In this document: positions 28,030 to 44,348 of the stretch, piece by piece
How positions within the stretch are numbered: position 1 is the stretch's first letter
Layout of the letters: every line of letters begins with the position of its first letter
Origin: an uncultured Thermoanaerobaculia bacterium
GTDB lineage: Bacteria; Acidobacteriota; Thermoanaerobaculia; Multivoradales; JAGPDF01
Direction: 5' to 3'
Length of the DNA: 64,000 nucleotides
Assembly: GCA_964618415.1 (NCBI GenBank)
Contig: CAZUAT010000002.1
Span: 47,758-111,757, forward strand
Translations under genes and position numbers: made by a program
The notes under the pieces: model-generated
What the model was told of the DNA's origin: nothing
What the model saw: the letters and a program-made list of their open reading frames with translations, nothing else
Databases searched by the model: none

Positions 28030-29712
28030 ATGAACCCGGCTGCAAGCCCTCCCCGGACCGTCCAGGCGCCCCGTGGATCGGCGATCTCCTGCCTCGGCTG
28101 GCAGCAGGAGGCCGCCCTGCGGATGCTCATGAACAACCTCGACCCGGAGGTGGCCGAACGACCGGCCGACCTGGTCGTCTACGGCGGTTCGGGCAAGGCA
28201 GCGCGCAACTGGGACTGCTTCGAGGCGCTGGTGGCGACGCTGCGCCGGCTCGGCGCCGACGAGACGCTGCTCGTGCAGTCGGGCAAACCGGTGGCGGTCT
28301 TCCGGACTCACCCCGGCGCGCCGCGGGTGTTGATCGCCAACTCCAACCTGGTGCCCCACTGGGCGACCATCGACGAGTTCCGCCGCCTCGAGGGGCTGGG
28401 GCTGACGATGTACGGCCAGATGACCGCCGGTTCCTGGATCTACATCGGCACCCAGGGGATCCTGCAGGGGACGTTCGAGACGCTGGCCGAGTGCGCGCGC
28501 CAGCGCTTCGGCGGCACGCTGGCGGGCCGCCTGGCCGTGACTGCCGGGCTGGGGGGCATGGGCGGCGCGCAACCGCTCGCGGTCACGATGAACGAGGGCG
28601 TCTGCCTGGTCGCGGAGGTCGACCGGTCGCGCATCGACAAGCGACTCGAAACGCGCTACCTGGATCGCGTCGCACCGGACCTCGACGCCGGGATCGACGC
28701 CGCGCTGGCGGCCGTGGCGGCGCGCGAAGCGGTGTCGATCGCCGTCGAGGCCAACGCCGTCGACCTGCTCGAACGGCTGCTCGAGCGGGGCGTGCAGCCC
28801 GACCTGGTGACCGACCAGACCTCGGCGCACGACAACCTGCACGGCTACGTGCCGCATGGCCTGACCTTCGCGGAGGCACTGGAGCTGCGGGCGGTCCATC
28901 CCGAGACCTACGTCGAGCGCGCGATGCAGTCGATGGCCACGCACGTTCGGGCGATGCTCGAGCTGCAGCGGCGGGGCGCGGTGGTGTTCGACTACGGCAA
29001 CAACCTGCGCGGCCAGGCACAGGAGGCCGGGGTCTCCGACGCTTTCGAGATCGGCGGTTTCGTGCCGCTGTTCATCCGGCCGCTGTTCTGCACCGGGCAG
29101 GGGCCGTTCCGATGGGCGGTGCTGTCGGGCGATCCGGCGGATCTCGCGGCCACCGACGCGGCGATCCTCGAAGCGTTCCCGGACGACGCAAAACTGCATC
29201 GCTGGATCCGCATGGCGCGCGAGCGCGTGGCGTTCCAGGGGCTGCCAGCGCGGATCTGCTGGCTGGGCTACGGCGAGCGGGCCCGCGCCGGCCGGGTGTT
29301 CAACGACCTCGTCGCCTCCGGCCGGGTCTCGGCGCCGATCGTCATCGGACGCGACCATCTCGACTGCGGGTCGGTGGCCTCGCCCTACCGCGAGACGGAA
29401 GGCATGCGGGACGGCTCGGACGCGATCGCTGACTGGCCGCTGCTCAACGCCCTGCTCAACGCCGTCAACGGTGCCACCTGGGTGTCGCTCCATCACGGCG
29501 GCGGGGTGGGGATCGGCAACTCGATCCACGCCGGTATGGTCATCGTGGCCGACGGCACACCGGAGGCTGCCGAGCGGCTCGAACGCGTGCTGACGGGCGA
29601 CCCCGGCATGGGCGTCGTCCGGCACGCGGACGCCGGCTATCCGGAGGCGATCGCCTGCGCCGCCGAGCGCGGGGTCGATCTGCCGATGTTGCGTCGCCCC
29701 GCGGAGGACTGA
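28030..29712 (+). CDS. hutU: Urocanate hydratase
   Basis: It spans 560 aa. Urocanase-family motifs are present ([44 protein letters not shown]). Confidence 0.9.
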
Positions 29713-29727: not shown

Positions 29728-32700
29728 TTGCAGCCCCGGGGATCGATCGCCAAGTCCCCGGCTCTGCTGACTGCCCGAATCCGTGCCGCTGCCGCCATGA
29801 AGCGCCGACGCCCGCTGTCCGCTGCTACCGACCTCTTGCTGCTGGCAGCGCTGTCGGCGGCCCCGGCGCTGACTGCCGCGCCCGGCGCAGTGCTGCTGGG
29901 CGTCGCCACCGGGCTCTGGGCGCTGCAGGTCGGACGGCCGCGGGAACGGCGGGTCGGCGCGCTCACATTCGGCCTCGGGGCGGTCCTGCTGACCGTCGCC
30001 GCGCTGAGCGCCTGGCGGCCCGCCACCCCCCCGTCCCCCGTCGACCTGGAGCGCTCGCACGCGCGCTGGTGGGCGGAGCTCGACGGCGCGGCTCGCACGG
30101 CAGCGCAGACGCTCGGTGCTGACCTCGAGTCCGCCGCCCGCCGCGAGGTGCTCTTCGAGCGGCTGCAGGCGATCGGCGCCGGCGGGCGGGGGCGAATCGC
30201 CCGCACCCTGCTGCTCGTCGATCGGGACGGAGAAGCGGTCGCCTGGGGTGGTCCCGGTCTGCTGCACGACCTGCGGCCGGAGGAGATGACGGCCCCCGGT
30301 CGGGGGCTGCGTCAGAGCGCGACCGCCGCCACGCTGTTCACCTCGGTGCCGGTCGAAGCGCGACGGGGCTGGCACCTGGTCGCTGGAGCGAGCTTTGCCC
30401 GCGACGGAGCTCCGCCGCTGGCCGATCCCGCCCTTGCCGCGCGCGCACCAGGTGGCTGGCACCTGGTGGTCGGAGAAGGGGAGGGCGCCCCGACAAAGTT
30501 GGTCGTGGGGGCGGGCGACGGCCCAGCGGCGGAAGGCGGGGCGTGGCAGGGCGTGGCGACCGGTCTGGTCGCGCTGGGTCTGCTCTGGATCGCGGCTTTA
30601 CGGGCAGTCGGGCGGGCGCTGCTGTCCGGAACCGTGCTGCCGCCCCGACAGCCGGTCGCCAGTGTCCTGGTGCCCGCCGCGCTCGCCGCACTGCTGACAG
30701 TCCATGCGCTCGGTGCGAACGCCTCGGAACAGGGCGGGCTCGCCCTGGCTCTGACGACCGCGCTGGTCGGGATCGAAATCGGTCGCCGGCGGTGGGCGGG
30801 CAGGCTGGTGCCGGTGGCAACCCTGCTCGGCCTGCTCATGCCGGTGGCGCTCGCCCTGGCGCTGCGTTCGCTGGCCGACCCGCTGGCCCCGTGGAGCGAG
30901 GCGCGCTTCGGGGACGGCTCGGCGCTCGCCGGTCGTCTGGCGCTGCTGCTGGCCATCTTTGCACCCGTGGCCGTCGCGGCCGGGGGCGCGGCGTCGCGGC
31001 GGGGCGGGCGCTGGGGCTGGACGGCCGCAGCACTCGCCCTCCTGGGCGGGGCCCTGGCGGGCCGACCGATCGTCGCGCTCGTTGTCCTCGCCGCGGCCGG
31101 CCTGGCCGCGACCCGGATGGCAAGCGGGGCTCGGCTCGGGCTCAACCTGTCGACCGCGGCAGCGCTGCTCGTCAGCGGTCTGATCGGCGGCGGCGCCGGG
31201 GCGGCGGGCGAGCAGCTGGCGATCGAGCGCGCGCTGCCGCGTCAGGCCCGGCATCTGATGCCGCCTTCGCCCGCAGAGCTGGTGGGCGTCGCCGCCGCCA
31301 TGGACGAGGCGCTGGCTCGCCACGACCCCGCCCGGTTTCTGCCGGCGGATGGCAGTGTCACGGGGCGTGGTGACTTGGCGTTCGCGATCTGGCGGGATTC
31401 CCCGCTGGCCCGCGTCGACCTGCTCTCGGCGCTGGTCGTGGAGTTCGAGGACGGTGGGCGCTCGACCTTCTCCTACGGGTTGCCGATCGACGCGGCCGGT
31501 GACCTCGTGTCGGCGCCGGAGCGGTGGTCGGACCTGGAGGAACAGAGCTGGCCGGAGCGACGGATCGGCGGCGTCATCGAGCGGACGATTCCGGCAGTCG
31601 GCGCGGCCGGCGACGAGTTCGGAGCGGTGCGCCAGCTGCGCTGGTGGGCCGTGCCGCGCGTCGGCTTCGGTGCCGGCGCGACGTGGACACCCGATCTGGA
31701 GTCGACGCTGCTGCGCGGCCTCACCCTGGGAGCACGGCCGTTCGGGCTCGCGCCACAGGTGCGATACGTGGTGCGCGGCGCCGAGGGGAGCTGGCGCGCC
31801 TCGTCCTGGCTCGAAGGCACACCGCCGGTCGAGCGCTGGCCCGCGCCGGGCACGATCGGGGAGGTCATGACCCCCGACGGGACGGCGCGAGCGGCGGCGG
31901 AGACGGGCGGGTCGCTGCGGGTGGCCGTCTTTCTGCCGCGGCCTGGACCCGGTGCGGCGCTCGAGCGGACCGGTTCCGTCGCCGCCGCGCCGCTGCTCGC
32001 CCTGCTGGCGCTGCTCGCGCTCGGCTGGCTGCTGGCGCTGCCGCGCAGCGCCGTTCGAGACCTCCTGCGGCGGGCCACGCGGTCGTACTCGAAGCGGCTC
32101 GTGATCGTCTTCGCGGCACTGCTGCTGCTCCCGGTCGGCGCGTTCTACTTCTTTCTCTCGCGAACGCTCGAGCGCCGGATCGTCCGCGCGCAGGAGGACG
32201 CGGCGCGGGCGGCGCTCGGTTCGGCGCAGCGCGTGCTGGGAGAGTACGTGCTGACCCTGCAGCCCGGCTTCGGAGTTGGCACGGCGATCGATGACGTGCT
32301 GCTGGAATGGCTGTCGCGCGTCGTGCGCCACGATGTCCACCTCTACTGGGGCAGTGAGATCTACGCCTCGTCGAAGCGCGACCTGTTTGCCGCCGGGCTG
32401 CTGCCGCGTCGGCTGCCCGGCGACGTGCAGGCGCGCCTCGAGCTGGGCGGCGACCGGCTGGCGCGGCGCACCGGCCAGGTCGGTGCGGCCGAGTATCTGG
32501 AGCTGTACACGCCGCTCGCGGTCCCGGGTGAAGTGGAAGCCGACGACGGCTCTGCGACGCGGCTCGTCCTGTCGATGCCTCTGCTCGCGCAGCAGGAGGA
32601 GGCGGTGGCGGAGGCGGCGCGACTACGCCGGCGGGCGCTGCTGGCCTCGCTGGCGTTGCTGGTGGCGCTGGCGGCGACCGGCGCCCGGGCGGCGCGCCGC

Positions 32701-33894
32701 TTCACCCGGCCGATCGAGGAGCTGGTGGCCGGCACTCGGCGCATCGCCGCCGGTGCGCCGACACTCGGCGTGCGCCCCGGAGATGCCGAGCTGGAGGCGC
32801 TCAGCGAGGCGATCGATCGGATGGCGGCGCGCATTGCCGCCGGCCGCGAGCGACTGCTGGCAGAGAAGCGCCTGGTCGAGCGGATCGTCGAATCCGTCGC
32901 TGGAGCGGTAGTCGCGCTCGACGCTGCCGGGCGGGTGCTGATCATCAACCGCTCCGGCCGCGACCTGCTGGCGGTCGAGCCGGGCGACGATCTGATCGCC
33001 CGTCTGCGGGCACAGGTCGACGATCCGGTCCAGCCGCGTCCGGAGCTGCGCGCGGTGGCCGAGTTCGCGGACACCACGGCCGCGGATCCGGCACGGCACG
33101 CCGTCCACCTGAGCGACGCGACGGCCGAGGATCGGGACTGGACGCTGGTGCGCGTGCCGCTCGAAGAGGCGGGCGAGGCGGCCGTGCTGCTGGTGGTCGA
33201 GGACGTCACCGACGTCGTGCGGGCGCGACGGCTCGAGGCGTGGGCCGAGATGGCGCGCCTGATCGCTCACGAGATCAAGAACCCGTTGACGCCGATCCGG
33301 CTCTCGGCCGAGCATCTGCGCGAGGCCTGGCAGCGCGATCGAGCGCACTTCGAATCGGTGTTCGAGCGCTGCACGCGCAACATCCTCACCCAGGTCGAGG
33401 AGCTGCGGCAGATCGCGTCGGAGTTCTCGACCTACAGCCAGATTCCGCGTCTCGAACGCCAGGCGGGGGACCTCAGCGCCGCCGTGGGTGCCGTGGCCGA
33501 GGCCTACCGAGCGTCGCCACCGCCAGGGGTAGAGGTTCGCCTCGACCTGCCCGCCGAGTCACTGCCGGCCGACTTCGACCCGCGGCTGCTGCCGCGGGCC
33601 ATCCGCAATCTGATCGAGAACGCGGTGCGGGCCGTCGCCGGCGGCGGCACCGTCGAGGTGCGAGTGGCGCGGGAGGGCCAGATGGCGACCGTCACGGTCA
33701 GCGACGACGGGCCCGGGGTGCCGCCGGACCAGGTCGGCAGGGTGCTCGAGCCCTACTTTTCGACCCACGCGACGGGCACCGGCCTCGGCCTTCCGATCGC
33801 GGCGCGGATCGCCGAAGAGCATGGCGGTTCGCTGGTCGCCCGCAACCGAACTGGCGGCGGATTCGAAGTCGTCGTTACAATCCCCCTTCAATGA
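29728..33894 (+). CDS. Very large multi-sensor histidine kinase, NtrY-like. Its layout runs from a polytopic N-terminal TM block through two periplasmic sensor regions, a HAMP and a PAS domain to HisKA and HATPase.
   Basis: The C-terminus reads ARLIAHEIKNPLTPIRLSAEHL (H-box), NLIENAVRA (N-box), then DDGPGVP and GTGLGLPIA (G-boxes). There are at least 10 predicted TM helices. The start is uncertain: the ORF opens with a TTG at 29728, and an alternative ATG lies at 29797. Confidence 0.7.
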   Translation: MQPRGSIAKSPALLTARIRAAAAMKRRRPLSAATDLLLLAALSAAPALTAAPGAVLLGVATGLWALQVGRPRERRVGALTFGLGAVLLTVAALSAWRPATPPSPVDLERSHARWWAELDGAARTAAQTLGADLESAARREVLFERLQAIGAGGRGRIARTLLLVDRDGEAVAWGGPGLLHDLRPEEMTAPGRGLRQSATAATLFTSVPVEARRGWHLVAGASFARDGAPPLADPALAARAPGGWHLVVGEGEGAPTKLVVGAGDGPAAEGGAWQGVATGLVALGLLWIAALRAVGRALLSGTVLPPRQPVASVLVPAALAALLTVHALGANASEQGGLALALTTALVGIEIGRRRWAGRLVPVATLLGLLMPVALALALRSLADPLAPWSEARFGDGSALAGRLALLLAIFAPVAVAAGGAASRRGGRWGWTAAALALLGGALAGRPIVALVVLAAAGLAATRMASGARLGLNLSTAAALLVSGLIGGGAGAAGEQLAIERALPRQARHLMPPSPAELVGVAAAMDEALARHDPARFLPADGSVTGRGDLAFAIWRDSPLARVDLLSALVVEFEDGGRSTFSYGLPIDAAGDLVSAPERWSDLEEQSWPERRIGGVIERTIPAVGAAGDEFGAVRQLRWWAVPRVGFGAGATWTPDLESTLLRGLTLGARPFGLAPQVRYVVRGAEGSWRASSWLEGTPPVERWPAPGTIGEVMTPDGTARAAAETGGSLRVAVFLPRPGPGAALERTGSVAAAPLLALLALLALGWLLALPRSAVRDLLRRATRSYSKRLVIVFAALLLLPVGAFYFFLSRTLERRIVRAQEDAARAALGSAQRVLGEYVLTLQPGFGVGTAIDDVLLEWLSRVVRHDVHLYWGSEIYASSKRDLFAAGLLPRRLPGDVQARLELGGDRLARRTGQVGAAEYLELYTPLAVPGEVEADDGSATRLVLSMPLLAQQEEAVAEAARLRRRALLASLALLVALAATGARAARRFTRPIEELVAGTRRIAAGAPTLGVRPGDAELEALSEAIDRMAARIAAGRERLLAEKRLVERIVESVAGAVVALDAAGRVLIINRSGRDLLAVEPGDDLIARLRAQVDDPVQPRPELRAVAEFADTTAADPARHAVHLSDATAEDRDWTLVRVPLEEAGEAAVLLVVEDVTDVVRARRLEAWAEMARLIAHEIKNPLTPIRLSAEHLREAWQRDRAHFESVFERCTRNILTQVEELRQIASEFSTYSQIPRLERQAGDLSAAVGAVAEAYRASPPPGVEVRLDLPAESLPADFDPRLLPRAIRNLIENAVRAVAGGGTVEVRVAREGQMATVTVSDDGPGVPPDQVGRVLEPYFSTHATGTGLGLPIAARIAEEHGGSLVARNRTGGGFEVVVTIPLQ

Positions 33895-35387
33895 GCCCCC
33901 GGGGTGCCGTGCGTGTCGCCGCCGCCGTGGCTGGATGCAGCCTCGCCGCGATGCTGACGGCGGCCTGCGGCCCCGGCCGGCGCGATGCCGTCGTTCCCGG
34001 CACGGCGGTCTGGCTCTCCGCCGCGGCCGCGCCGCTGGACCTGGCGACGCTCGACCGGCTGCGGGCCGGCGGCGTGACGACCTTCTTCCTGGAGGCGGCG
34101 CAGGTCGAATGGTCCGGCGGCGCGAGTCGACTGGTGCCCGGGGGGATGGCCCGCCTGCCGCGGCGTGACCGCGCCACGCTGGTTGTCGCCGGGGATCGCC
34201 CGCCGGCCGGACTGGACAGCGACGCCGCCGCGGCGGGTCTGGTCCAGGGAGTCGAGGCGCTGCGCCTGGCCGCTGAAGGGGCGGGTCATCTGCCCGCCGG
34301 CCTGCACTTCGAGCTGCGCGGGCGAGGCGGACTGGCCGCCCTGGGCGCGCTGCTGGCCGCGCTGCGCGACGAGACCGACGGCCGGCTGCTGCTTTCGGCC
34401 GGTATCGGACGGAGCGACCTGGACGATCCGGAGCTCGCGAAGCTGGCGGCTGAGGCCGATTTTCTGGTGGCGTTTCTTTACGGACAGCGGCCGGGCGACG
34501 CGGAGGATCCACGCAGCTGGGATCTCCAGGAGGTCGAGCGGGGGCTGCAGCGCCTGGAGACCCTCAACTGTCCCTACTACGTGACTGCGGTGACGGCCGG
34601 CAGCGCTTCGCTGCGGGATCGCCGCGGCAGCCGGCGCGAGGTCTCCACCTCGTTCGACATCGCGCAACTGGTGCGCGACAGCCGCTTCGAGCTCAAGCGG
34701 GGGTTCTCGCTGGAAGGTATCGACCGCCAGGTTCATGAATTGCGAGCCCGTTCTCCGTTGACCATCGGCGACTGGGAGATGGTCACCGGCGAGTCGATCC
34801 GGATCGTCCGCTTGGCCACCACCAACGTCGAGGAGTTCCTGCGCCGCTGCGGCGCCTGGTCGACCGAACGGATGCTCGGCCCGCTGTTCTGGCGACTGCC
34901 GGAACCGGGCGAACGCCTGGTGCTGACGGTCGACAGCCTGATCGCGGGGCTCGATCCGGCGCCGTCGCGTCCGCAGATGGCGCTGGCGCTCGAACCGCTG
35001 CCGTCGCGGCGCGGAGTGCGCAACGTGCGGGTCAGGCTCACCTCGCTCAACGACGAAAACACGGACTTGGCGTTCTTCGAGGCGAACTACGTCGACGTGA
35101 TGGTCACTGGAGCCCGCATCGCCGACGCCGAAGCCGGCGACTTCGCCCGCTATGAGCTGTCGCGCGACGGCGACAGCTCGACCATGCAGGCACTGCGCGA
35201 GGCCGACCGCGTCCGTCTCTGGGTGCCTTGGGTGGCGGGCCGCGAGGAGCTGCTCTCCGGTCCGATCGAGATCGTGGCGCGCGGTCGCGAGAAGCCGGCC
35301 GTCTTTACCGCCGGTCGGTTCGCCCTGTCCGACGGCTCGATCCTGGCCATCGAGCGCCAGGAGTGGGCCGAGGAGCGTGCGCCGTGA
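33891..35387 (+). CDS. Hypothetical lipoprotein (498 aa)
   Basis: Its ATG overlaps the kinase stop in an ATGA overlap. The signal and lipobox read AAMLTAACG. It has no recognisable domain. It is coupled downstream to the metzincin via a GTGA overlap. Confidence 0.55.
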   Translation: MSPRGAVRVAAAVAGCSLAAMLTAACGPGRRDAVVPGTAVWLSAAAAPLDLATLDRLRAGGVTTFFLEAAQVEWSGGASRLVPGGMARLPRRDRATLVVAGDRPPAGLDSDAAAAGLVQGVEALRLAAEGAGHLPAGLHFELRGRGGLAALGALLAALRDETDGRLLLSAGIGRSDLDDPELAKLAAEADFLVAFLYGQRPGDAEDPRSWDLQEVERGLQRLETLNCPYYVTAVTAGSASLRDRRGSRREVSTSFDIAQLVRDSRFELKRGFSLEGIDRQVHELRARSPLTIGDWEMVTGESIRIVRLATTNVEEFLRRCGAWSTERMLGPLFWRLPEPGERLVLTVDSLIAGLDPAPSRPQMALALEPLPSRRGVRNVRVRLTSLNDENTDLAFFEANYVDVMVTGARIADAEAGDFARYELSRDGDSSTMQALREADRVRLWVPWVAGREELLSGPIEIVARGREKPAVFTAGRFALSDGSILAIERQEWAEERAP

Positions 35388-37957
35388 GGCCGGCTGGGGC
35401 TGCGGCCTGGCGGGCGCCACGCGGGTGGGCCGTCGTCTGCTGGGCGTTGGTGACAGTCGGCTGCGCAGGCGTGCCACGGCCCGAAACCGCTGCTCCGGAG
35501 GCGCCCCCGCGTCCACCGAGCGAGATCGAGCGGGCGATCGAGGGAACTGAAGCGCGACATGGCCTGCTCCGGCTGCAGCTGGACCGCCGGCGGGGCCGAC
35601 TGCTGGCTCTGCTGCCGGCGCCGGCGGGCCCGCGCGCCAGCATCGGCCTGTACGTGCATGCCGCCGGCATCCGAACGGGGCTCGGCTCCAACCCGGTAGG
35701 GCTCGATCGCGGCCAGCTCGGCGAGACCCGGCTGGTGGAGCTTCGCCGTCTGGGCGGCCGGGTCGTCATCGAGGCGCTCAACACGCGCTACCGCGCCCTC
35801 TCTGACGACCCCGCAGAGGTCGAGGCGGCGCGCGAGTCGTTCGCCACGTCGATTCTGTTCGCCACCGAGATTCTGGCCGAGGACGACGAGGGCACGCTGC
35901 TCGTCGACCTGTCCGACTTTCTCCTCCGCGACGCGCACGGCATCGCGCGCCGGCTGGCAGCAGCGGGCCAGGGAACCTGGTCGCTCGATGCACGGCGCAG
36001 CGCGATCGATCTCGACTCCTGCCGGGCGTTTCCGGAGAACGTGGAGCTCGAGTCCTGGCTGACCTTCGTCGGCAGCGGTCCGGCGCCCGAGGTCGAGGCC
36101 GTGGCGCCCGACGCGAGCGCGGTGACGCTGGTCGTGCATCAGTCGCTGCTCGCTCTGCCGGCAGAGGGATACCGGCCTCGCGAGCACGACTTGCGGATGG
36201 GATCGTTTGCGGTCGACTTCGTCGACCTCGCAGCGCCGCTCGGTCGGCCGCTCGCGCGGCGGTGGATCGCGCGGCATCGGCTCGAACCGGTCGACCCGGG
36301 CACGCCGGCCGCCGGCGTGCGCGACCCGATCGTTTTTCACGTCGACCGCGGCGCACCCGAGCCGGTGCGCACGGCACTGCTCGAAGGCGCGGCCTGGTGG
36401 GCGGCGGCGTTCGACAAGGCCGGCCTGCCGGGTGCGTTTCGCGTCGAACTGCTGCCCGAAGGGGCTGACCCGCTCGACGCGCGCTACAACGTGATCCAGT
36501 GGGTGCATCGCGCCACGCGGGGCTGGTCGTACGGTGCGGCCCTGATCGATCCGCGCAGCGGCGAAATCCTGAAGGGGCACGTCTCGCTCGACTCGCAGCG
36601 CATCCGTCAGGACCTGCTGCTGTTCGAGGGACTGGCCGGTACGGCGGCCACAGGGAGCGGCGGCGCGGACGATCCGATCGAGCTGGCGTTGGCGCGGATC
36701 CGCCAGCTGGCCGCACACGAGGTCGGACACGCGCTCGGCTTCCAGCACAACTTCGCGGCGTCGACGTTCGATCGCGGCTCGGTCATGGACTACCCGGCGC
36801 CGCTCGTCACTGTCGACGCCGAGGGCCGGCTCGACTTCTCGCGTGCCTACGCGGTCGGCGTCGGGCCGTGGGACGACGCGAGCGTGCGCCACGCCTACGG
36901 TCAGCCGCCGGCTGGCATCGAGGAAGCGGCCTGGCTGGCCGGCGTGGTGGAGGAGACGCTCGCGCAGGGCCTCTTCCTCCTTTCCGACGACGATGCCCGG
37001 GGCGCGGCGAGCGGCCACCCTCGCGCCAGTCTGTGGGACAACGGCCGCGACCCGCTGTCGGCACTGGAGCGGACGTTGCGGGTCCGGCGGCTGGCGCTGG
37101 CGCGCTTCGGAGCGCGCAGTCTGGCGCCCGGGCAGCCGATGGCGAACCTCGAGGAGGTCCTCGCCACCGTCTATTTCCACCATCGGTTCCAGGTTGCCGC
37201 GACGGTCAAGCTGCTCGGCGGCCTCGACTACCGGCACGCAGTGCGCGGCGACCGCCAGCCGCCGGCGCGCGCCGTCGAACCGGACCGGCAGCGTCGGGCG
37301 CTCGAGCTGCTGCTCGGCACGTTGGCGCCAGCCGAGCTCGATCTCGCCGACAGCCTGCTCGTCCAGCTGACCCCGCGGGCGCCCGGCATGGAGCGGAGCC
37401 GAGAGCAGTTCCGCGGCCGCAGCGGCCCGGCCTTCGACCTGCTCGATGCGGCAGCCGCCGCGGCCGACCTGACGCTGCGCGGGCTGCTCGATCCAGCGCG
37501 CGGTGCGCGGCTGGTCGAGATGCATCGGCGCGCGCCACAGAGTCCAGACTTCAGCGACGTCGTCGGTGAGACCGTGGCGCGGGTGTTCGGCGACATGACG
37601 CTCCTGCCACCGCGCGAACTGGAGATCGCACGCGTCGTCCAGCGCACTCTGGTCGAACGGCTGCTCGACGTGTCGGCCGACGTCGACGCGTCGCCGCCGG
37701 TGCGCTCGCGCGTCGACGGCGCGCTGTCGAACCTGCTCGAGCGTCTCGATGGCTGGGACGCCGTCGACGCCGCGGAGCGCGCGCATATCGGATCGCTGGC
37801 CGCCGAAATCGGGCGTCATCTGGCCCGCCCCGCGCCCGCCCGCGTGCCGTCGCCGGGCGCCCCGCAGCCACCACCGGGCGAGCCGATCGGCAGCGCCGCC
37901 CCGGCCTGGCTTCGCGGGTTGGACCCGGGCGTCGAGTGCGGCCAGTTCCGGCCGTGA
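35384..37957 (+). CDS. Secreted zinc metalloprotease, metzincin type (DUF5117/DUF4953-like)
   Basis: The signal and lipobox read VVCWALVTVGCAG. The zinc motif is HEVGHALGFQH (HExxHxxGxxH), with a Met-turn SVMDYP downstream. It spans about 857 aa. Confidence 0.7.
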   Translation: MRPAGAAAWRAPRGWAVVCWALVTVGCAGVPRPETAAPEAPPRPPSEIERAIEGTEARHGLLRLQLDRRRGRLLALLPAPAGPRASIGLYVHAAGIRTGLGSNPVGLDRGQLGETRLVELRRLGGRVVIEALNTRYRALSDDPAEVEAARESFATSILFATEILAEDDEGTLLVDLSDFLLRDAHGIARRLAAAGQGTWSLDARRSAIDLDSCRAFPENVELESWLTFVGSGPAPEVEAVAPDASAVTLVVHQSLLALPAEGYRPREHDLRMGSFAVDFVDLAAPLGRPLARRWIARHRLEPVDPGTPAAGVRDPIVFHVDRGAPEPVRTALLEGAAWWAAAFDKAGLPGAFRVELLPEGADPLDARYNVIQWVHRATRGWSYGAALIDPRSGEILKGHVSLDSQRIRQDLLLFEGLAGTAATGSGGADDPIELALARIRQLAAHEVGHALGFQHNFAASTFDRGSVMDYPAPLVTVDAEGRLDFSRAYAVGVGPWDDASVRHAYGQPPAGIEEAAWLAGVVEETLAQGLFLLSDDDARGAASGHPRASLWDNGRDPLSALERTLRVRRLALARFGARSLAPGQPMANLEEVLATVYFHHRFQVAATVKLLGGLDYRHAVRGDRQPPARAVEPDRQRRALELLLGTLAPAELDLADSLLVQLTPRAPGMERSREQFRGRSGPAFDLLDAAAAAADLTLRGLLDPARGARLVEMHRRAPQSPDFSDVVGETVARVFGDMTLLPPRELEIARVVQRTLVERLLDVSADVDASPPVRSRVDGALSNLLERLDGWDAVDAAERAHIGSLAAEIGRHLARPAPARVPSPGAPQPPPGEPIGSAAPAWLRGLDPGVECGQFRP

Positions 37958-38754
37958 TGCTCGCGCGCCGCGCGATTGCGGTGCTGTTCCTCTCCGCCTC
38001 CTGCGCGGCCGGCGAACCGGCGGAGGTGACCGGGTCTGGGTCGACGCTGCCAGTTGGGCGCCCCACGGTGCTTGCCGTGCGACCTCATGATCCCACCTCG
38101 TTCACCCAGGGACTGGTGTGGGCGGATGGCCGGCTCTGGGAGAGCTCCGGCCAGTACGGAGCCTCGCGCCTCGTCGAGGTCGAACCGGCCGACGGCCGAA
38201 CTCTGCGCAGCGTGCCGCTGCCGGCGAACGAGTTTGCCGAGGGACTGGCACGCGTCGGCGATCGCCTGCTTCAGCTCACCTGGCAGGAGGGGGTCGTGCA
38301 CGTCTGGAGTCTGCCCGACCTGCGGCCCCGGCCATCTCTGCGGTTCGACGGGGAAGGATGGGGTCTGACCTTCGACGGCGAGCGACTGATCCAGAGCGAC
38401 GGTACCGCGCGGCTGCTGTTCCGTTCGCCGATGGACTTTGCGCTGCTCGGCACTGTCACCGTACGCCGTGACGGCCGCCCGGTCCCTTACCTGAACGAGC
38501 TCGAGTGGGCAGACGGAGCGGTCTACGCCAATGTCTGGATGAGCGACGAGATCCTGCGGATCGATCCGGAGACCGGCGCGGTGACCGCAGTCTGGGACGC
38601 GAGCGGCCTGCTGGCGCCCGGGGAGCGAGCCGGGGCCGACGTGCTCAACGGCATCGCCTGGGACGGCGAGCGGCGGATCTTTCACCTGACCGGCAAGTAC
38701 TGGCCGTGGCGCTTCGAGGTCGAACTTCCGCTGCCGGGCGCCGCCACGCGCTGA
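37936..38754 (+). CDS. Glutaminyl-peptide cyclotransferase (bacterial/plant beta-propeller type)
   Basis: It has a signal peptide. The family signature is [24 protein letters not shown]..., followed by [18 protein letters not shown]. It overlaps the metzincin 3' end by 22 bp. Confidence 0.8.
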
Positions 38755-38833
38755 GCCGGATGCAGCCGGCGGCGCTGGTGTCGGCCCGGGCGGCTCGATA
38801 CACTTACCAGCCCCGCGAGAGGAGCGAGCTTCG

Positions 38834-39838
38834 ATGACCCAGGCGCAGTGGTACGTGGCGGTGAACGGACAGCAGGAGGGCCCGCTGAGCGAGGAGGAGA
38901 TCGTCTCCCGCCTCGCCGCCGGCCGACTCGATCGCAACGCCCACGTCTACGGGCCCGGTATGGCCGCCTGGGCGCCGATCGGGAGTGTCGGGCGGTTTGC
39001 CAATGTGGCGCCCGCGGCCGCACCGCCACCGCCGCCGCCCGGCGGTGCGCACGAGATCGACTACGAGATCCGCGGCCAGGAGATGCAGTACGTCGAGGTG
39101 ACACTCGACCCGGGCGAGGCCTGCGTGGCCGAGGCAGGCGCGTTCTTCTACATGGATCCCGACATCCGGATGGAGACGATTTTCGGCGACGGGTCCGGGG
39201 CCAGCAGCGCCGGCGGCATGATGGGCAAGCTGCTGTCGGCCGGAAAGCGCGTGCTGACCGGGGAGTCGCTGTTCATGACCGTCTTCTCCAACAGCGGCAG
39301 TCAGCGGCGGACGGTTTCGTTCGCGGCCCCCTACCCGGGCAGCATCGTGCCGCTCGACCTGCGGCAGCTCGGCGGAAGCATGCTCTGCCAGAAGGATGCC
39401 TTCCTGTGCGCCGCTCGCGGCGTGTCGGTGGGCATCGCGTTTCAGCGTCGCCTGGGCGCGGGCCTGTTCGGCGGCGAGGGGTTCATCCTGCAGAAACTCG
39501 AGGGCGACGGCCTCGCGTTCGTGCACGCCTGCGGCATGATCGTCGAGCGGGATCTGGCCGCCGGCGAGACGCTGCGCGTCGACACCGGCTGTCTGGTGGC
39601 GTTCGAGCCGCGAGTGAAGTACGACATCGAGATGGTCAAGGGCGTCAAGACGTTCCTGTTCGGCGGCGAGGGCCTGTTCTTTGCCACCGTCACCGGGCCG
39701 GGGCGGGTCTGGCTCCAGACGCTGCCGTTCGCGCGGCTCGCGTCACGCGTTCTGCAGTCGTCCGGCATCGGCCGGGGACGTCGTGAAGAGGGGTCGATCC
39801 TCGGCTCGCTCGGCAATCTCCTCGACGGCGACGGCTGA
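38834..39838 (+). CDS. DUF4339 (GYF-like) plus AIM24/TIGR00266-family domain protein
   Basis: The N-terminus reads [18 protein letters not shown], which is DUF4339. After a Pro-rich linker comes an AIM24-like beta-rich core ([24 protein letters not shown]...[16 protein letters not shown]). Confidence 0.65.
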
Positions 39839-39841
39839 GCC

Positions 39842-41923
39842 GTGCGCTGCCGCAGTCTCTTCGGTCGCCTCGCGCCGGCGCTGTGTGTGGCCGCCCAGCT
39901 GACGGGCGGACTGTGCGCGCCCGCTCAGGCCGGCTATCCGGCCGACGTCCCCTCGGCCGAGCACGTCGCGCGGGCGCTCGCGGTCGTCTACCCGGCGCTG
40001 GTCAACCTGACCGTCGTCAACGAGCACTTCGCCGACGGACGCGCGCTGCGAGGGCCCGGGGCGGGGAGCGGAGTCATCGTCACGCCGGAAGGACACGTGC
40101 TGACCAACTACCATGTCGCCGGCGACGCCACCCGGATCACCGCGACGCTGACGACTGGTGAGATTCTCGACGCCGAGGTGGTGGCCCACGATCCGGCCAC
40201 CGACCTGTCCGTGCTGCGGCTGCGCACCGAAGCCCGGGCGGCCGACGCGCCGCCGCTCGTTCCGGCGCGATTCTCCGAGCGCGTGCTCGCGGTCGGCGAC
40301 CCAGTGCTCGCGATGGGCAATCCGCTGACCCTGTCGTCCTCGGTGACGCTCGGCATCGTCTCCAACGCTCGCCGGGTGTTCACCGACTTCCTCGGCAACC
40401 GGCTGGAGGACCTGGATCTCGGGTCCGGCGGACCGACGGGGCTGTTCACGCAGTGGATCCAGCACGACGCGCTGATCCTGCCGGGCAACTCCGGCGGTCC
40501 GCTGGTCGACCTCGACGGCGCCATCGTGGGTATCAACGAGCTGGGTGGCGGCGGCATCGGCTTCGCGATTCCGACCGCCATCGCGCGCGAAGTCCTCGCC
40601 CAGGCGCTCGCCGGCGGCCGAATCCGGCGCGCCTGGCTCGGCCTGGCGGTCGGTCCGGTCGCCAAGCTCGAACGGTTTGACGGCGCGCTGGTGCACACCG
40701 TCATGCCGGGCTCGGCGGCCGGGCGTGCCGGAGTGCAACCCGGAGACATCCTGCTGAGCCTGGCCGGCCAGCCGCTGGCGGTGCGTTTCTTCTACGCCGT
40801 ACCCGAGATCTACCTGACGATCTCCCGCCTGCCGATCGGCGAGCCGGTGCCGCTGGTCGTGGAGCGAGACGGGCGCCGCATCGAGCTCGAGGTCACGCCC
40901 GAGGAGATGGAGGAGGCGGTCGGCAAGCGGGCGGAGGTACGCCGACTGGGCATCACGGCGCAGGAGATCACCGGCCCGATGTCGCTGGGGCTGCACGTGC
41001 CGCCGCGTTCGGGCCTGCTCGTGACCAGCCTGCGCCCCGGCTTCCCGGCGGTCGGCGCCAAGCCTCCGATCGAGAGCGGCGACCTGATCACCGCCGTCGG
41101 CGAGCGAGCCGTGACGCGGCTCGACGAGCTCGACAACGCGCTGGCGGAAGCGGGGGGCGACGAGGTCCTGGTCACCTTGCGGCGTGAGGACGCGCGACTG
41201 CTGACGGTCGTGCGGCTGCGCGAGCCGGGGTCGGCGCGCTGGGGCGGCGAGCTGCCCAAGGCCTGGCTCGGCGTCGAGACGCAGGTGGTGACGGCCGAAC
41301 TGGCCCGGGCGATGGGACAGCCCGAACTGCGCGGGTTCCGGGTCACCGAGGTCTACCCGTGGACCCGGGCGGCCGAGAGCGGACTGCAGGTCGGCGACGT
41401 CATCGTGGCGCTGGCCGGCGAACCGATCGAGGCCGGCCGCGCCCAGGACGTCGAGAACCTGCGCGTCGCGGTCGAGGCGCGATCGATCGGCGAACGGGTG
41501 CCGATCGACGTGGTGCGCGGCGCGACGACCGAATCGATCGAGGTGGAGCTGCAGGCGCGCCCGACCTCGGCCGTGGAGGCGCGCACGGCGCGCCAGGCGG
41601 AGCTCGAGTTCACGGTGCGCGACCTGACTTTCCTCGACCGCATCGAGCGGCATCTGGATCGCGAGCAGGGCGGCGTCATCGTCACCGAGGTGACCCCCGG
41701 CGGCTGGGCGCAGATGGGCGGGCTCGAGACGGGCGACCTCGTGCTGGCGGTGGGCGGTTCGGCGCTCGCCGACGTGGCGGCGTTCGACGCGACGATGAAG
41801 CGGCTGATCCGCGAGCGCCCTGCGGCAGTACCGGTCTTCGTCCGCCGCGGCTGGCGTACGACCTACGTCTTCCTCGAACCGGAATGGCCCGGCGACGAGA
41901 ACGGTTCAGGAGAACTGCGATGA
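39842..41923 (+). CDS. HtrA/DegP-family serine endoprotease with an extended multi-PDZ C-terminus (about 4 PDZ domains)
   Basis: It has a signal peptide. The catalytic triad is complete: H in VLTNYHVAGDA, D in DLSVLRL, S in GNSGGPLVDLDGAIVGIN. Four PDZ-like modules follow (GDILLSLAG, GDLITAVG, GDVIVALAG, GDLVLAVGG). Confidence 0.85.
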   Translation: MRCRSLFGRLAPALCVAAQLTGGLCAPAQAGYPADVPSAEHVARALAVVYPALVNLTVVNEHFADGRALRGPGAGSGVIVTPEGHVLTNYHVAGDATRITATLTTGEILDAEVVAHDPATDLSVLRLRTEARAADAPPLVPARFSERVLAVGDPVLAMGNPLTLSSSVTLGIVSNARRVFTDFLGNRLEDLDLGSGGPTGLFTQWIQHDALILPGNSGGPLVDLDGAIVGINELGGGGIGFAIPTAIAREVLAQALAGGRIRRAWLGLAVGPVAKLERFDGALVHTVMPGSAAGRAGVQPGDILLSLAGQPLAVRFFYAVPEIYLTISRLPIGEPVPLVVERDGRRIELEVTPEEMEEAVGKRAEVRRLGITAQEITGPMSLGLHVPPRSGLLVTSLRPGFPAVGAKPPIESGDLITAVGERAVTRLDELDNALAEAGGDEVLVTLRREDARLLTVVRLREPGSARWGGELPKAWLGVETQVVTAELARAMGQPELRGFRVTEVYPWTRAAESGLQVGDVIVALAGEPIEAGRAQDVENLRVAVEARSIGERVPIDVVRGATTESIEVELQARPTSAVEARTARQAELEFTVRDLTFLDRIERHLDREQGGVIVTEVTPGGWAQMGGLETGDLVLAVGGSALADVAAFDATMKRLIRERPAAVPVFVRRGWRTTYVFLEPEWPGDENGSGELR

Positions 41924-42804
41924 CGAGATGGGGCGCGGTGGCGCTGACGGTCTGCGGACTCGCTGTGGCCGGTGCTGAGGGCGCCCGGGCTGCAGACTGG
42001 CCGGCGCTGGTCGAGCGCGTGGCACCGGCGATCGTCAACGTGAAGCTCTCGCTGAAGACCGAGTCGCCCTACGGCGGCGAAGCGGAGGAGTCGACGCACG
42101 AGGTGCTCGGCACGGTCGTCGACCCCGGCGGCCTGATCCTCATGTGGAACTCCCACTTTTCGCCCAACCGGTTCCTCGAGATCTTCAGTGGGCTGAGCGG
42201 CGAGACGCTCGACTTCAAAGTGACGCCGACCGACATCCGGGTCTCTTTCGACGGCGGGTCGACGGAGCACCCCGCTTTCCTCGCCGCCGCCGACTCCGAT
42301 CTCGACCTGGCGTTCATCCAGCTGCAGGAGCGCCCGGACGCGCCGCTGGCCGCGATCGACTTCTCCCGCGCCGCCACTCCGTCGACGGGTGACGAGCTCG
42401 CGGCGGTCGCGCGCCTGACCGCGGCGTTCGACCGCGTGCCCTATTTCGACGTGCTGCGTCTCACGGGTCAGATCCGCAAGCCGCGCACCGCCTGGATCGT
42501 CGGCGCGGGCAACGCAACGCAGACCGGAATGACCTACTTCGCCGCCGACGGGCTGCCGGCCGGCGTGCTCGTGACGGTCCTCTCGCGCGCCCGTACCGAC
42601 ACCAGCCCCAACAGCAGCAACGTGATGGCCGAGCTGCTGTCGGTGGGCCGAGGGACGGTGGAGGTCGGCCCCCTCGGGCTGTTCCTGCTGCCGGCGAGCC
42701 AGGTACAGCCGGTCATCGAGCAGGCGCGCCAGCGTGCCGTCCAGCTGCTTGCCGAACGGGCTGCAGCCGCAGCTGCGGAGACGCCGGCGGCGCCGGCGCC
42801 CTGA
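41920..42804 (+). CDS. Trypsin-fold (S1-like) secreted protein that lacks the catalytic serine, a probable pseudo-protease
   Basis: Its ATG overlaps the HtrA stop. It has a signal peptide. It is HtrA-like around the His (ILMWNSH) and the Asp (DLDLAFIQL). The GNSGGP box is replaced by GAGNATQTG. Confidence 0.55.
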   Translation: MTRWGAVALTVCGLAVAGAEGARAADWPALVERVAPAIVNVKLSLKTESPYGGEAEESTHEVLGTVVDPGGLILMWNSHFSPNRFLEIFSGLSGETLDFKVTPTDIRVSFDGGSTEHPAFLAAADSDLDLAFIQLQERPDAPLAAIDFSRAATPSTGDELAAVARLTAAFDRVPYFDVLRLTGQIRKPRTAWIVGAGNATQTGMTYFAADGLPAGVLVTVLSRARTDTSPNSSNVMAELLSVGRGTVEVGPLGLFLLPASQVQPVIEQARQRAVQLLAERAAAAAAETPAAPAP

Positions 42805-42813
42805 CGCCAGCGG

Positions 42814-43104
42814 TCAGCCGACCGGCGCGTTCTCGATGCGCAGCATCTTGGCCCACGCGGCGCGCAGGCCGGCGGGCAGGTCGAGCTGGGGAAACAGCTC
42901 GCAGACCTGCTCACGCGTCACCCAGGTCCAGATGTCGTCCCAGTCGGCGAAGCGGAGCAGGTGGGAGATCGCCCAGGCGCGCCGTTCGTCGGTGCCGTGG
43001 GTGAGGAGGTGGCGCAGGTCGGCGGCGGTGAACGGCACGTCCGGGAAGAAGTAGAGCGCGTCGCCACGCTCGAGGTCGGAACGATCGGTGCCGGAGGCCT
43101 GCAT
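42814..43104 (-). CDS. Small hypothetical protein (96 aa)
   Basis: It is a stand-alone ORF with a non-repetitive, protein-like composition (..YFFPDVPFTAADLRHLLTHGTDERRAW..). No domain was recognised. Confidence 0.35.
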   Translation of the reverse strand: MQASGTDRSDLERGDALYFFPDVPFTAADLRHLLTHGTDERRAWAISHLLRFADWDDIWTWVTREQVCELFPQLDLPAGLRAAWAKMLRIENAPVG

Positions 43105-43225
43105 CGCCGGATCAGTATAGCCATAGATCGCGCTGGCGCAAGCGCGCGCCGCGGCGGCGACCGGCTGCAGCTGACTCGGTCACAGCTTGACCGGGCGCGG
43201 GCCCTCGGCTAGATTGGTCCACGAG

Positions 43226-43301
43226 GCGGGCATAACTCAGTTGGTAGAGTGTCAGCTTCCCAAGCTGAATGTCGCGGGTTCGAATCCCGTTGCCCGCTCC
43301 A
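43226..43301 (+). tRNA. tRNA-Gly (anticodon CCC)
   Basis: It is 76 nt long. The acceptor stem pairs GCGGGCA with TGCCCGC. The anticodon stem pairs TCAGC with GCTGA, with loop TTCCCAA. The T-loop reads GGTTCGAATCC. The CCA end is encoded. Confidence 0.8.
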
Positions 43302-43325
43302 GTTTCGACTCCTCCGGCGGCCCCG

Positions 43326-44348
43326 TCAGCGGGCCGCCGTTTTCGTAGCAGCCAGCAGGTCTGCGGGTGGCCCGGCGGCGGGCAGAGCCGGCCACTCCGT
43401 TCCTGTAACGGTGCTCCACAGGTCGATCAGGTCTGTCGGGACCGGCGCTTCGACGCACAGCGGAGCGTCGCTCACCGGGTGGGCGAAGGTGAGTCGCCAG
43501 GCGTGCAGCGCCGGGCGCGGGAACTCCGCGAGCGGCCGTGCGCGGGCTCGCGGCAGGCCGCGCCAGCGCGCCTCTCCGTAGACCGGATCGCCGATCAGCG
43601 GATGCCCGAGGTGTCGCGCATGGACGCGGATCTGATGGGTGCGGCCGGTGTGCAGCCGCAGTTCGAGCAGCGCCAGGGGAGCGGAGCGCGCGACGACCCG
43701 GAAATCGGTACGCGCCGGCCGGGCGCCCGCCACCACCGCCATCCGCTTCCGGTCGCGCCGATCGCGGCCGATCGGCGCCTCGATCGAGCCGCTGTCGGCG
43801 CGCGGCGCGCCCCAGGTGATCGCCAGGTAGCGTTTGTCGACTTCGCGCTGAGCAAACGACCGGGCGAGTGCCGTGTAGGCACGCGGAGTGCGCGCGACGA
43901 GCAGCAGACCGCTGGTGCCGAGGTCGAGCCGGTGAACGATTCCCGGCCGGCCCGGGCCGCCTACGCCGGCGATGTCGGGATAGCGCGCCAGCAGGCGATG
44001 CGCGAACGTGCCGGTGGCGCGGCCGGCGCCGGGGTGGACGGCGAGATCGGGCGGCTTGTCGAACGCGAGCAGATCGTCGTCCTCGTACAGCACTGTCAGG
44101 GCCCCCTCTTCCGGCAGCAGACGGTCGTCAGTGAGCGGCGGGGGATCCCAACTCAGCACACTCTCGGCACGCAGCTGCGCGGACGGACGGGTGACCGCTG
44201 CGCCGTCCACCGTCACCCGGCCGGCGCGGATCCATTGCGCAACCTGGTTGCGCGGCAGAGCGAGCGATGTCGCGAGCGCGCGGTCGAGCCGTTCGCCGGC
44301 GAGCGCCGCGCCTGCGGTGAGACTGCCGGCCGCGGGCCGTCCGCTCAC
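43326..44348 (-). CDS. rluD: 23S rRNA pseudouridine synthase, RluD/RluA family, with an S4 N-terminal domain
   Basis: The S4 motif reads ERLDRALA...RNQVAQWIRAGRVTVDG. The catalytic motif reads HRLDLGTSGLLLVART. The GTG start overlaps the lspA stop by 4 bp. Confidence 0.8.
   Translation of the reverse strand: MSGRPAAGSLTAGAALAGERLDRALATSLALPRNQVAQWIRAGRVTVDGAAVTRPSAQLRAESVLSWDPPPLTDDRLLPEEGALTVLYEDDDLLAFDKPPDLAVHPGAGRATGTFAHRLLARYPDIAGVGGPGRPGIVHRLDLGTSGLLLVARTPRAYTALARSFAQREVDKRYLAITWGAPRADSGSIEAPIGRDRRDRKRMAVVAGARPARTDFRVVARSAPLALLELRLHTGRTHQIRVHARHLGHPLIGDPVYGEARWRGLPRARARPLAEFPRPALHAWRLTFAHPVSDAPLCVEAPVPTDLIDLWSTVTGTEWPALPAAGPPADLLAATKTAAR

Follow-up and report, generated by a model that had tools for sequence, protein, structure and literature searches.

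Gene content of the locus

The window analysed here, a stretch of 64,000 nucleotides (nt) from an uncultured Thermoanaerobaculia bacterium (contig CAZUAT010000002.1), carries between positions 29728 and 42804 seven closely packed, co-directional open reading frames (ORFs). They run from a giant sensor kinase through a lipoprotein, a metzincin, a glutaminyl cyclase (QC), an AIM24 protein and a four-PDZ HtrA to a catalytically dead relative of HtrA. A preliminary description of this DNA, made from the sequence alone, saw in them a single dedicated module for the maturation, quality control or signalling of envelope proteins. Comparison with about 50 related loci separates the block into independent units. 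We therefore consider it likely that three bicistronic units, each conserved independently, and one facultative gene have come to lie side by side in this lineage on a conserved, co-directional housekeeping backbone and, with the same likelihood, that the block is not one dedicated seven-gene system. The units are kinase and lipoprotein, metzincin and QC, and HtrA and its dead relative. The seven genes, with product lengths in amino acids (aa), are as follows.

29728..33894, plus strand: giant multi-pass sensor histidine kinase, 1365-1388 aa (alternative start ATG 29797); HAMP, PAS_4, HisKA and HATPase_c by Pfam.
33891..35387, plus strand: lipoprotein, 498 aa; GH18/DUF3142-like (beta/alpha)8 barrel at ~38-340, then a C-terminal beta-sandwich at ~360-492; ATGA overlap with the kinase gene.
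35384..37957, plus strand: DUF5117/DUF4953 metzincin, 857 aa; lipobox VTVGC, HEVGHALGFQH and SVMDY (the presumed Met-turn).
37936..38754, plus strand: type I (plant/Xanthomonas-type, beta-propeller) QC; lipobox LSASC; likely start ATG 37957 (265 aa).
38834..39838, plus strand: cytoplasmic GYF_2-AIM24 protein, 334 aa; GYF_2 53 bits, AIM24 (PF01987) 255 bits.
39842..41923, plus strand: HtrA/DegP-type serine protease, 693 aa, with four PDZ domains and a signal-peptidase-I-type signal peptide; His (NYHV), Asp (TDLSV) and Ser (GNSGGP) intact.
41920..42804, plus strand: secreted HtrA-fold pseudo-protease (called dead S1 below), 294 aa, without PDZ domains; conserved C-terminal helix, signal-peptidase-I-type signal peptide, ATGA overlap with the HtrA gene.

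All seven frames lie where the preliminary description placed them and are real genes, as judged from their coding signature (GC3 of 0.83-0.90 vs. GC2 of 0.50-0.56 in a window of ~71% GC). Pfam matched every domain that had been predicted, namely DUF5117, DUF4953, Glu_cyclase_2, GYF_2 (the former DUF4339), AIM24, Trypsin_2 and PDZ, the Trypsin_2 match of the last ORF being sub-threshold only. Export of all products except possibly the AIM24 protein was likewise confirmed, a lipobox or signal peptide being read on each of the other six. Three of the described start-stop overlaps are exact: ATGA between kinase and lipoprotein (33891-33894), GTGA between lipoprotein and metzincin (35384-35387), and ATGA between HtrA and the pseudo-protease (41920-41923). 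The gap between the AIM24 and HtrA genes, given earlier as 4 bp, measures 3 nt (39839-39841). The 22-bp overlap ascribed to the metzincin and QC genes holds only if the QC starts at GTG 37936, whereas public calls for an identical protein start at ATG 37957, which leaves an overlap of 1 nt. QC and AIM24 genes are 79 nt apart. The start of the kinase is ambiguous, TTG 29728 and ATG 29797 lying 15 and 84 nt, respectively, past the stop codon of the upstream gene hutU.

Conservation of the block in related genomes

For the comparison 107 loci were fetched: those around homologues of the lipoprotein and of dead S1, those around 80 QC genes of GTDB species representatives with 10-kb flanks, and those around 27 metagenomic homologues of dead S1. 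The seven proteins, together with the products of hutU, an M20 peptidase gene, sm96 and rluB, were placed in the fetched loci by tblastn. Loci are cited below by number (L007 and so on). Two flanking genes serve as landmarks.

28030..29712, plus strand: hutU (urocanase), with Urocanase_N, Urocanase and Urocanase_C by Pfam; outside the reported cluster.
42814..43104, minus strand: sm96, convergent gene for a cytoplasmic protein of 96 aa without a Pfam match; downstream boundary marker.

The uninterrupted seven-gene set was found only in the window and in its close relatives L007/L008 and L096. L016 has the set with an additional M20 peptidase gene on the opposite strand, and the other loci carry subsets. 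Outside the subclade of the window most species keep only the metzincin and the QC. The preliminary description had itself named unconserved synteny as a sign of a coincidental arrangement, and this is in part what is seen: three pairwise links are conserved, while the seven-gene synteny is not. The families also differ sharply in size. The lipoprotein family comprises 36 clusters and the dead S1 family 74, while the QC family gives >3000 matches and the metzincin family 5677 representatives at E<=1e-3.

The region between the QC gene and sm96 behaves as a variable slot with six states: nothing; AIM24; HtrA-dead S1; opposite-strand M20 followed by HtrA-dead S1; AIM24-HtrA-dead S1; and opposite-strand M20 followed by AIM24-HtrA-dead S1. 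The opposite-strand M20 peptidase gene lies between QC and HtrA in L009, L014, L016, L019, L023, L063, L101, L110 and L120, and the window is uninterrupted. In most other members of the subclade (L009, L014, L019, L023, L063, L101, L110, L120) it replaces AIM24, and L016 has both. Since this gene is read from the other strand, the block must be split into at least two transcription units in those loci. In relatives sm96 follows directly after whichever gene ends the block, be it QC, AIM24 or dead S1, and rluB comes next.

The AIM24 protein belongs to its family by all measures applied (TIGR00266, 112.7 bits against a cut-off of 96.6; PDB entry 1YOX, PA3696, 1.3e-90). It has no export signal; because its GYF domain begins at residue 6, there is no signal peptide. 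A literature search for AIM24 combined with GYF found nothing relevant from bacteria. It is a facultative occupant of the slot and probably an unrelated cytoplasmic protein that would stand outside all three units.

HtrA and the pseudo-protease

What is shown is which genes are present, how their products fold, that one triad has been lost and how the genes are conserved; the roles proposed below for the units, and physical interaction within each pair, are inferred.

The active protease of the third unit is a member of the HtrA/DegP family, with a Trypsin_2 match of 96.7 bits and four PDZ matches. Like DegP and DegQ (TIGR02037) it has a signal peptide and a Trypsin_2 domain with the His-Asp-Ser triad, followed by PDZ domains. 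It differs from them in having four PDZ domains instead of two, and it scores 338 bits against TIGR02037, under the cut-off of 416.

Its partner is recognised by Pfam only through the sub-threshold Trypsin_2 match (22.3 bits vs. a cut-off of 27.6). The AF2 model of the protein (pLDDT 87) finds the HtrA fold clearly: the top 50 Foldseek matches in the PDB are all protease domains of HtrA1, DegS, DegP or DegQ, with E=5e-11 to 8e-10. When the dead S1 profile is aligned by hhalign to a profile of the HtrA protease domain built from 15 orthologues, the two match with 89.5% probability and E=2e-6, over the N-terminal barrel only, with the His and Asp columns in register. The same family profile against a single full-length HtrA sequence gave no significant hhalign match. 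Among 60 members the nucleophile column, assigned by motif (GNATQ vs. GNSGG in the family alignment), holds Ala in 50, Pro in five and Ser in two. The other two columns were assigned by profile alignment: the Asp is invariant, and the His position is occupied by H in 43 members, Q in nine, N in six and E in two. Both members that bear the Ser have Gln in place of the His, and a full His-Asp-Ser triad occurs in 0 of 60. As no member has a complete triad, dead S1 is a true pseudo-protease family, and the preliminary call of a dead S1 protein stands on the model, the profile and the triad alike. Its further designation as an S1 paralogue is right as to the fold shared with HtrA, but probably not if a recent duplicate of the neighbouring gene is meant. 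Judging from its sequence, dead S1 appears to have diverged from HtrA long ago and is probably no recent copy of the adjacent gene.

The pairing of the two genes is very strict. HtrA lies directly upstream of dead S1 in all ~25 loci with enough flank, and the 4-nt overlap recurs in all five lineages for which gene calls exist. The pair also occurs by itself: L011 has the opposite-strand M20, HtrA and dead S1, and the 10 kb upstream contain neither metzincin nor QC nor kinase. Between lineages dead S1 keeps 64-69% identity where the neighbouring lipoprotein keeps only 48-54%. One Rhodocyclaceae-binned contig (L013, 5571-6868) has a dead S1 homologue of 48% identity after a 100-aa ORF which represents the C-terminal PDZ fragment of an HtrA; it may be a truncated pair, or else a mis-binned or chimeric contig.

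The nearest known arrangement is that of MamE and MamO (PMC4794232), where an active, PDZ-bearing HtrA is likewise encoded beside a degenerate protein of HtrA fold that lacks catalytic residues. That the dead copy is conserved as a family indicates that it is under selection. The pair described here has no magnetosome context. MamO carries a TauE-like membrane domain and a metal-binding di-histidine site (PMC4794232); dead S1 is small (294 aa), secreted, PDZ-less and without a TauE-like domain; MamE has c-type cytochrome (magnetochrome) motifs, and the HtrA here has none of them but four PDZ domains. MamO was the only precedent for a bacterial HtrA pseudo-protease found in the literature. By analogy, the third unit would consist of a four-PDZ HtrA translationally coupled to a secreted, dead, PDZ-less protein of HtrA fold, which could serve the active protease, in stoichiometric amounts, as a regulator or adaptor, by a logic like that of MamO and MamE. 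That the four-PDZ HtrA depends on dead S1 as an obligate regulatory subunit, and that the two thus form a second, independent partnership of the MamO/MamE kind outside magnetosomes, we propose tentatively, at somewhat less than even chances. In any case such a narrow and strongly conserved pseudo-HtrA family offers a clean natural case for studying how dead subunits regulate HtrA cages.

Metzincin and glutaminyl cyclase

The metzincin is assigned by PF16313 (DUF4953, 192 bits) and PF17148 (DUF5117, 107 bits), and its zinc motif HExxHxxGxxH is intact. A sequence search of the PDB with this protein returned no solved homologue, and no literature on DUF4953 was found. Its mode of anchoring varies by clade: a lipobox is present in the clade of the window, and a signal-peptidase-I-type signal (e.g., AAA|PP...) in many other Thermoanaerobaculia (L017, L018, L021, L027, L032).

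The QC is of type I, with a match of 277 bits to Glu_cyclase_2 (PF05096) and PDB matches to 3NOL (9e-59), 3NOK, 3MBR and the papaya enzyme 2FAW (4e-37). Its residues E62, N180 and K247 are invariant in 20 homologues. In the papaya and Xanthomonas enzymes the catalytic set is E69, N155 and K225 (PMC5837995), to which the three residues are expected to correspond, as matched by motif and not by alignment to the solved enzymes. Tandem QC paralogues were seen in two Chloroflexota-labelled genomes, three copies in Candidatus Epilinea brevis (L030, 10001-12362) and two in an Anaerolineales metagenome-assembled genome (L025, 10001-11165).

A metzincin gene lies within 5 kb upstream of the QC gene in 24 of 30 species representatives labelled Acidobacteriota, including 18 of the 20 labelled Thermoanaerobaculia. 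The preliminary description raised the question of whether the metzincin-QC-HtrA synteny recurs in other phyla. It does not in the loci compared: both tblastn and a hidden Markov model (HMM) of 97 diverse metzincins found no metzincin near the QC in any of the 50 loci from Myxococcota, Actinomycetota, Chloroflexota, Pseudomonadota and other phyla. A metzincin-QC pair spanning phyla was rejected on the same 0/50 count.

Within the class the pair is usually found by itself, enclosed by a divergent gene and a convergent one, and in more than 10 loci only the metzincin and the QC are present. Of the 13 species without a kinase pair here, 12 were examined upstream of the metzincin (all except L022), and in 10 of these the closest ORF call is read from the opposite strand. 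Downstream, the first backbone gene recognised is sm96 in 12 of the 13, L062 being the exception; it comes directly after the QC in five, after AIM24 in three and after AIM24-HtrA-dead S1 in L045. Gaps of 1.1-2.1 kb in L021, L028 and L032 could hide an unrecognised gene. With an upstream neighbour on the other strand and sm96 downstream, the metzincin and QC genes form a two-gene unit of their own in most of the class.

In Bacteroidetes a lipoprotein QC caps the substrates of signal peptidase I (the Q-rule; PMC5837995, PMC10653852), and Gln follows the signal peptide in ~60-80% of cases (PMC5837995). The QC of the window resembles the Bacteroidetes enzymes in being apparently lipobox-anchored, of the plant-like beta-propeller type, and with the expected active-site residues kept. 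It differs in that there is no enrichment of Gln after predicted signal peptides: in ~28 Thermoanaerobaculia loci Gln was at position +1 in 5 of 59, as read by a crude heuristic predictor that counts some transmembrane (TM) segments as false positives. A Q-rule like that of Bacteroidetes thus found no support. To our knowledge, linkage of QC and DUF4953 metzincin genes has not been described for Bacteroidetes.

The second unit would then be the class-wide core of the block, a DUF5117/DUF4953 metzincin and a type I QC that usually form an operon of their own. Endoproteolysis by the metzincin may expose an N-terminal Gln or Glu on a limited set of exported proteins or peptides, which the QC would cap as pyroglutamate; alternatively, the QC may simply protect a narrow set of substrates. 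Such an operon is a first genomic hint of the partner or substrate context of bacterial type I QCs outside the Bacteroidetes Q-rule, and it gives a context to the uncharacterised DUF4953 metzincins.

Sensor kinase and lipoprotein

The first gene of the block encodes a histidine kinase by its HisKA (33.7 bits) and HATPase_c (84.4 bits) domains and its H-box AHEIKNPLTP; the best NCBIfam match is AtoS-like and far under the cut-off. Hydropathy predicts ~11-12 TM segments and three large loops at residues 74-249, 445-723 and 792-946 (numbered from ATG 29797). From the position of HAMP, loops 445-723 and 792-946 must be periplasmic, so the two periplasmic sensor regions named in the preliminary description are roughly right. 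Neither residues 1-968 as a whole (29797-32700) nor the three loops searched separately had a Pfam match at E<=1. On its sequence, the N-terminal portion of ~950-968 aa represents a sensor architecture that has not been characterised so far. The 64-kb window encodes no response regulator, as had been stated: Pfam of 30 flanking ORFs and tblastn with CheY, PhoB, NtrC and NarL seeds both agree. None was found within 10 kb of the kinase in L007, L009, L010 and L014 either.

In the window and in L007, L009, L010, L016, L019, L023, L031 and L063, i.e., in every locus with enough upstream sequence, hutU lies directly 5' of the kinase homologue, and in L009 the two overlap by 4 nt. For this reason the kinase cannot be shown to head the unit, as had been proposed. 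The link between hutU and the kinase is as deep as that between the kinase and the lipoprotein; no functional reason for it is apparent, short of a tie between the kinase and histidine utilisation.

The lipoprotein has the lipobox LTAAC26, and Cys26 is kept in at least 90% of 35 homologues, as expected of a bacterial lipoprotein. By fold it is a GH18-type (beta/alpha)8 barrel. No Pfam or NCBIfam profile matches it, Glyco_hydro_18 and DUF3142 included, and a precomputed match to PF11340 exists for only two of 36 homologues. Strand beta-4, mapped by eye on the model, reads G137-L-H139-F-[E/D]-L-x; H139 is invariant and there is no conserved Glu at the acid position. The model thus suggests that the protein appears to be without the canonical GH18 catalytic motif (DxDxE / DxxDxDxE), the catalytic Glu included. 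It differs in both respects from GH18 chitinases and the DUF3142 chitinase TfeC (PDB 8y6t): it has no Pfam match, and, again by eye, G-L-H-F-[D/E]-L-x stands in place of the GH18 beta-4 sequence DGxDxDxE.

Kinase and lipoprotein genes are always adjacent and always follow hutU in the synteny tables. They overlap by 4 nt in four lineages, and in L010 a gap of ~100-230 nt separates them. L010 also shows the pair by itself: hutU, kinase and lipoprotein are followed by purE, dinB, an amidase gene and mreB, with no metzincin, QC or HtrA gene. A separate case is L046 (762-3351, uncultured Thermoanaerobaculia), where a kinase homologue is directly followed by a QC, with no lipoprotein or metzincin between them. 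In L009 (11610-12224) and also in L019, L023, L031, L063 and L110, a gene for ~204 aa without a Pfam match, which the window lacks, separates the lipoprotein gene from the metzincin gene.

Sensor kinases with an exported co-sensor are known, among them Vibrio ChiS with the chitin-oligosaccharide-binding protein CBP, and CpxA with NlpE. The first unit is similar in that a membrane kinase is encoded beside an exported accessory protein that could deliver a signal, here one with a chitinase-like, sugar-binding fold. Unlike in those systems, the accessory protein is a GH18/DUF3142-like barrel and not a solute-binding protein, and the kinase has a sensor part of ~950 aa with 11-12 TM segments, no known domain and no linked response regulator. 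We take the unit to be a giant NtrY/AtoS-like orphan kinase translationally coupled to the GH18/DUF3142-like lipoprotein. Outside the cytoplasm this probably non-catalytic protein may bind glycans and sense them together with the kinase, in the way CBP serves ChiS in Vibrio, and it is a candidate glycan co-sensor.

Three units or one system

The reading originally proposed, one dedicated, co-transcribed envelope module in which the kinase senses the state of the envelope and the other exported proteins share substrates, seems unlikely to us. Much of what speaks for it is true of the window: of the six junctions only that between QC and AIM24 is neither an overlap nor a 3-nt gap, no site resembling a promoter or terminator was found inside the block, and six of the seven products are exported. 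Several observations likewise weigh against a division into three units. The order kinase-lipoprotein-metzincin-QC-(slot)-HtrA-dead S1 is kept throughout the subclade down to ~40-55% identity (L009, L014, L019, L023, L063, L102, L110). At this locus the HtrA pair is present in four of five species representatives that have the kinase pair vs. one of 13 that lack it (Fisher p=0.008, the species being phylogenetically non-independent), which is above expectation. The kinase-QC adjacency in L046 hints at some link between units, or could instead reflect deletion of the two middle genes. A scan of 27.5-43.4 kb for sigma-70 and intrinsic-terminator consensus, which is uninformative for this phylum, gave clear matches only around a tRNA-Gly gene and none inside the block, so the block may be co-transcribed here. 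Finally, the loss of the GH18 motif was read off strand beta-4 in the model by eye and not from a structural superposition.

The association of the two pairs loses its force in the neighbour-joining tree of the metzincin. Every locus that has the kinase pair as well as the HtrA pair belongs to a single clade there, outside of which lie L031, with the kinase pair alone, and L045, with the HtrA pair alone. The co-presence is thus a single historical event inherited by one subclade. As functional evidence the association was therefore discounted in spite of its p value, and it is weak evidence for a functional union at best. Against a single module stand further the opposite-strand M20 gene that interrupts the block in most members of the clade, the cytoplasmic and facultative AIM24 protein, the occurrence of each pair alone elsewhere (L010, L011 and the more than 10 loci with the metzincin and QC only), and the absence of the synteny from 50 of 50 QC loci of other phyla. 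Moreover, hutU is equally packed and conserved and would have to belong to the module too. The seven genes, possibly with hutU, may share one transcript here; this would then reflect genome compaction and not a shared function. A stronger form of the idea holds that, in the subclade, one transcript from hutU/kinase to the pseudo-protease makes up a previously undescribed, kinase-supervised circuit of envelope proteolysis and maturation. The glycan-sensing kinase-lipoprotein pair, the pyroglutamyl-capping metzincin-QC pair and a hetero-oligomeric HtrA cage of active four-PDZ and dead PDZ-less subunits would be co-expressed in it. We give this circuit little chance, less than the module in general.

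Part of the block could instead belong to general periplasmic housekeeping, with the QC capping most exports as under the Q-rule, the HtrA acting like DegP, and the metzincin, pseudo-protease and lipoprotein unrelated to them. The QC has a lipobox and the expected active-site residues like the Bacteroidetes enzymes (PMC5837995, PMC10653852), the HtrA, with its triad intact, resembles DegP/DegQ, and the neighbouring genes of the window are housekeeping genes. We nevertheless consider this quite improbable. The few Gln residues after the crudely predicted signal peptides (5/59) indicate no Q-rule; the adjacency of metzincin and QC is kept nearly class-wide with neighbours on opposite strands; and dead S1 never occurs without HtrA directly upstream, with the 4-nt overlap in the five lineages with gene calls, which would be unexpected for unrelated neighbours. 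The most sceptical view, that all adjacency here, even within the three pairs, was inherited neutrally and without functional meaning in a region that rearranges slowly, draws on the unrelated backbone genes hutU, sm96, rluB, lspA and acpS, whose position is equally conserved. It is the least probable, since the pairs stay intact while their surroundings change (L010, L011, L017-L036, L045), and the 4-nt overlaps of kinase-lipoprotein and HtrA-dead S1 are kept across lineages at 36-55% identity.

In general, the data favour three independently conserved pairs. All components fall into known superfamilies, and the seven-gene combination is real but lineage-specific and interrupted in most members of the clade. 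As a seven-gene system it is of little import because the comparison shows a mosaic, and its value lies in the three pairs, whose roles are hypotheses in an almost uncultured class. The literature search found no prior description of a class-wide metzincin-QC operon, an obligate HtrA/pseudo-HtrA pairing or a kinase with a GH18-like lipoprotein. The pairs extend known kinds, namely the sensor with an accessory protein, the protease with a pseudo-protease, and the QC lipoprotein, and form no new category.

Genomic context and other observations

Named homologues put the window in the class Thermoanaerobaculia of the phylum Acidobacteriota. The plus strand carries nearly all its genes from ~1.3 to 42.8 kb. 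Upstream of the block these are housekeeping genes (class II aminoacyl-tRNA synthetase, clp ATPase, bamA, lpxD-fabZ-lpxA, pcm, cinA, guaA, hutH and hutU), and further ones (cysS, dnaB, alr, mlaE/mlaD, radA, purC) lie downstream. Overlaps of 4 nt occur here as well, in lpxD-fabZ-lpxA at 12822/12825 and 13310/13313, and hutU is packed against the kinase gene as tightly as the cluster genes among themselves. Because the same-strand run and such overlaps extend over the whole stretch, co-directionality and tight packing are not distinctive of the seven genes. Downstream the block ends 9 nt from sm96, counted between the two stop codons, and tRNA-Gly(CCC), rluB and acpS follow. The positions of hutU on one side and of sm96, tRNA-Gly, rluB and acpS on the other are conserved as well as the cluster itself.

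An Rfam scan of the whole window found tRNAs only. On the minus strand, an ORF of 665 aa (60944-62941) shows a strong coding signature by its GC3 of 0.92, and a Pfam search at E<=0.1 gave no match for it. One tRNA gene lies next after sm96.

43226-43301, plus strand: tRNA-Gly(CCC), between two minus-strand genes.

On one side of this gene lies the sole sigma-70-like promoter match of the scanned region (43187-43215), on the other, at 43315-43339, a strong GC hairpin with a T-run.

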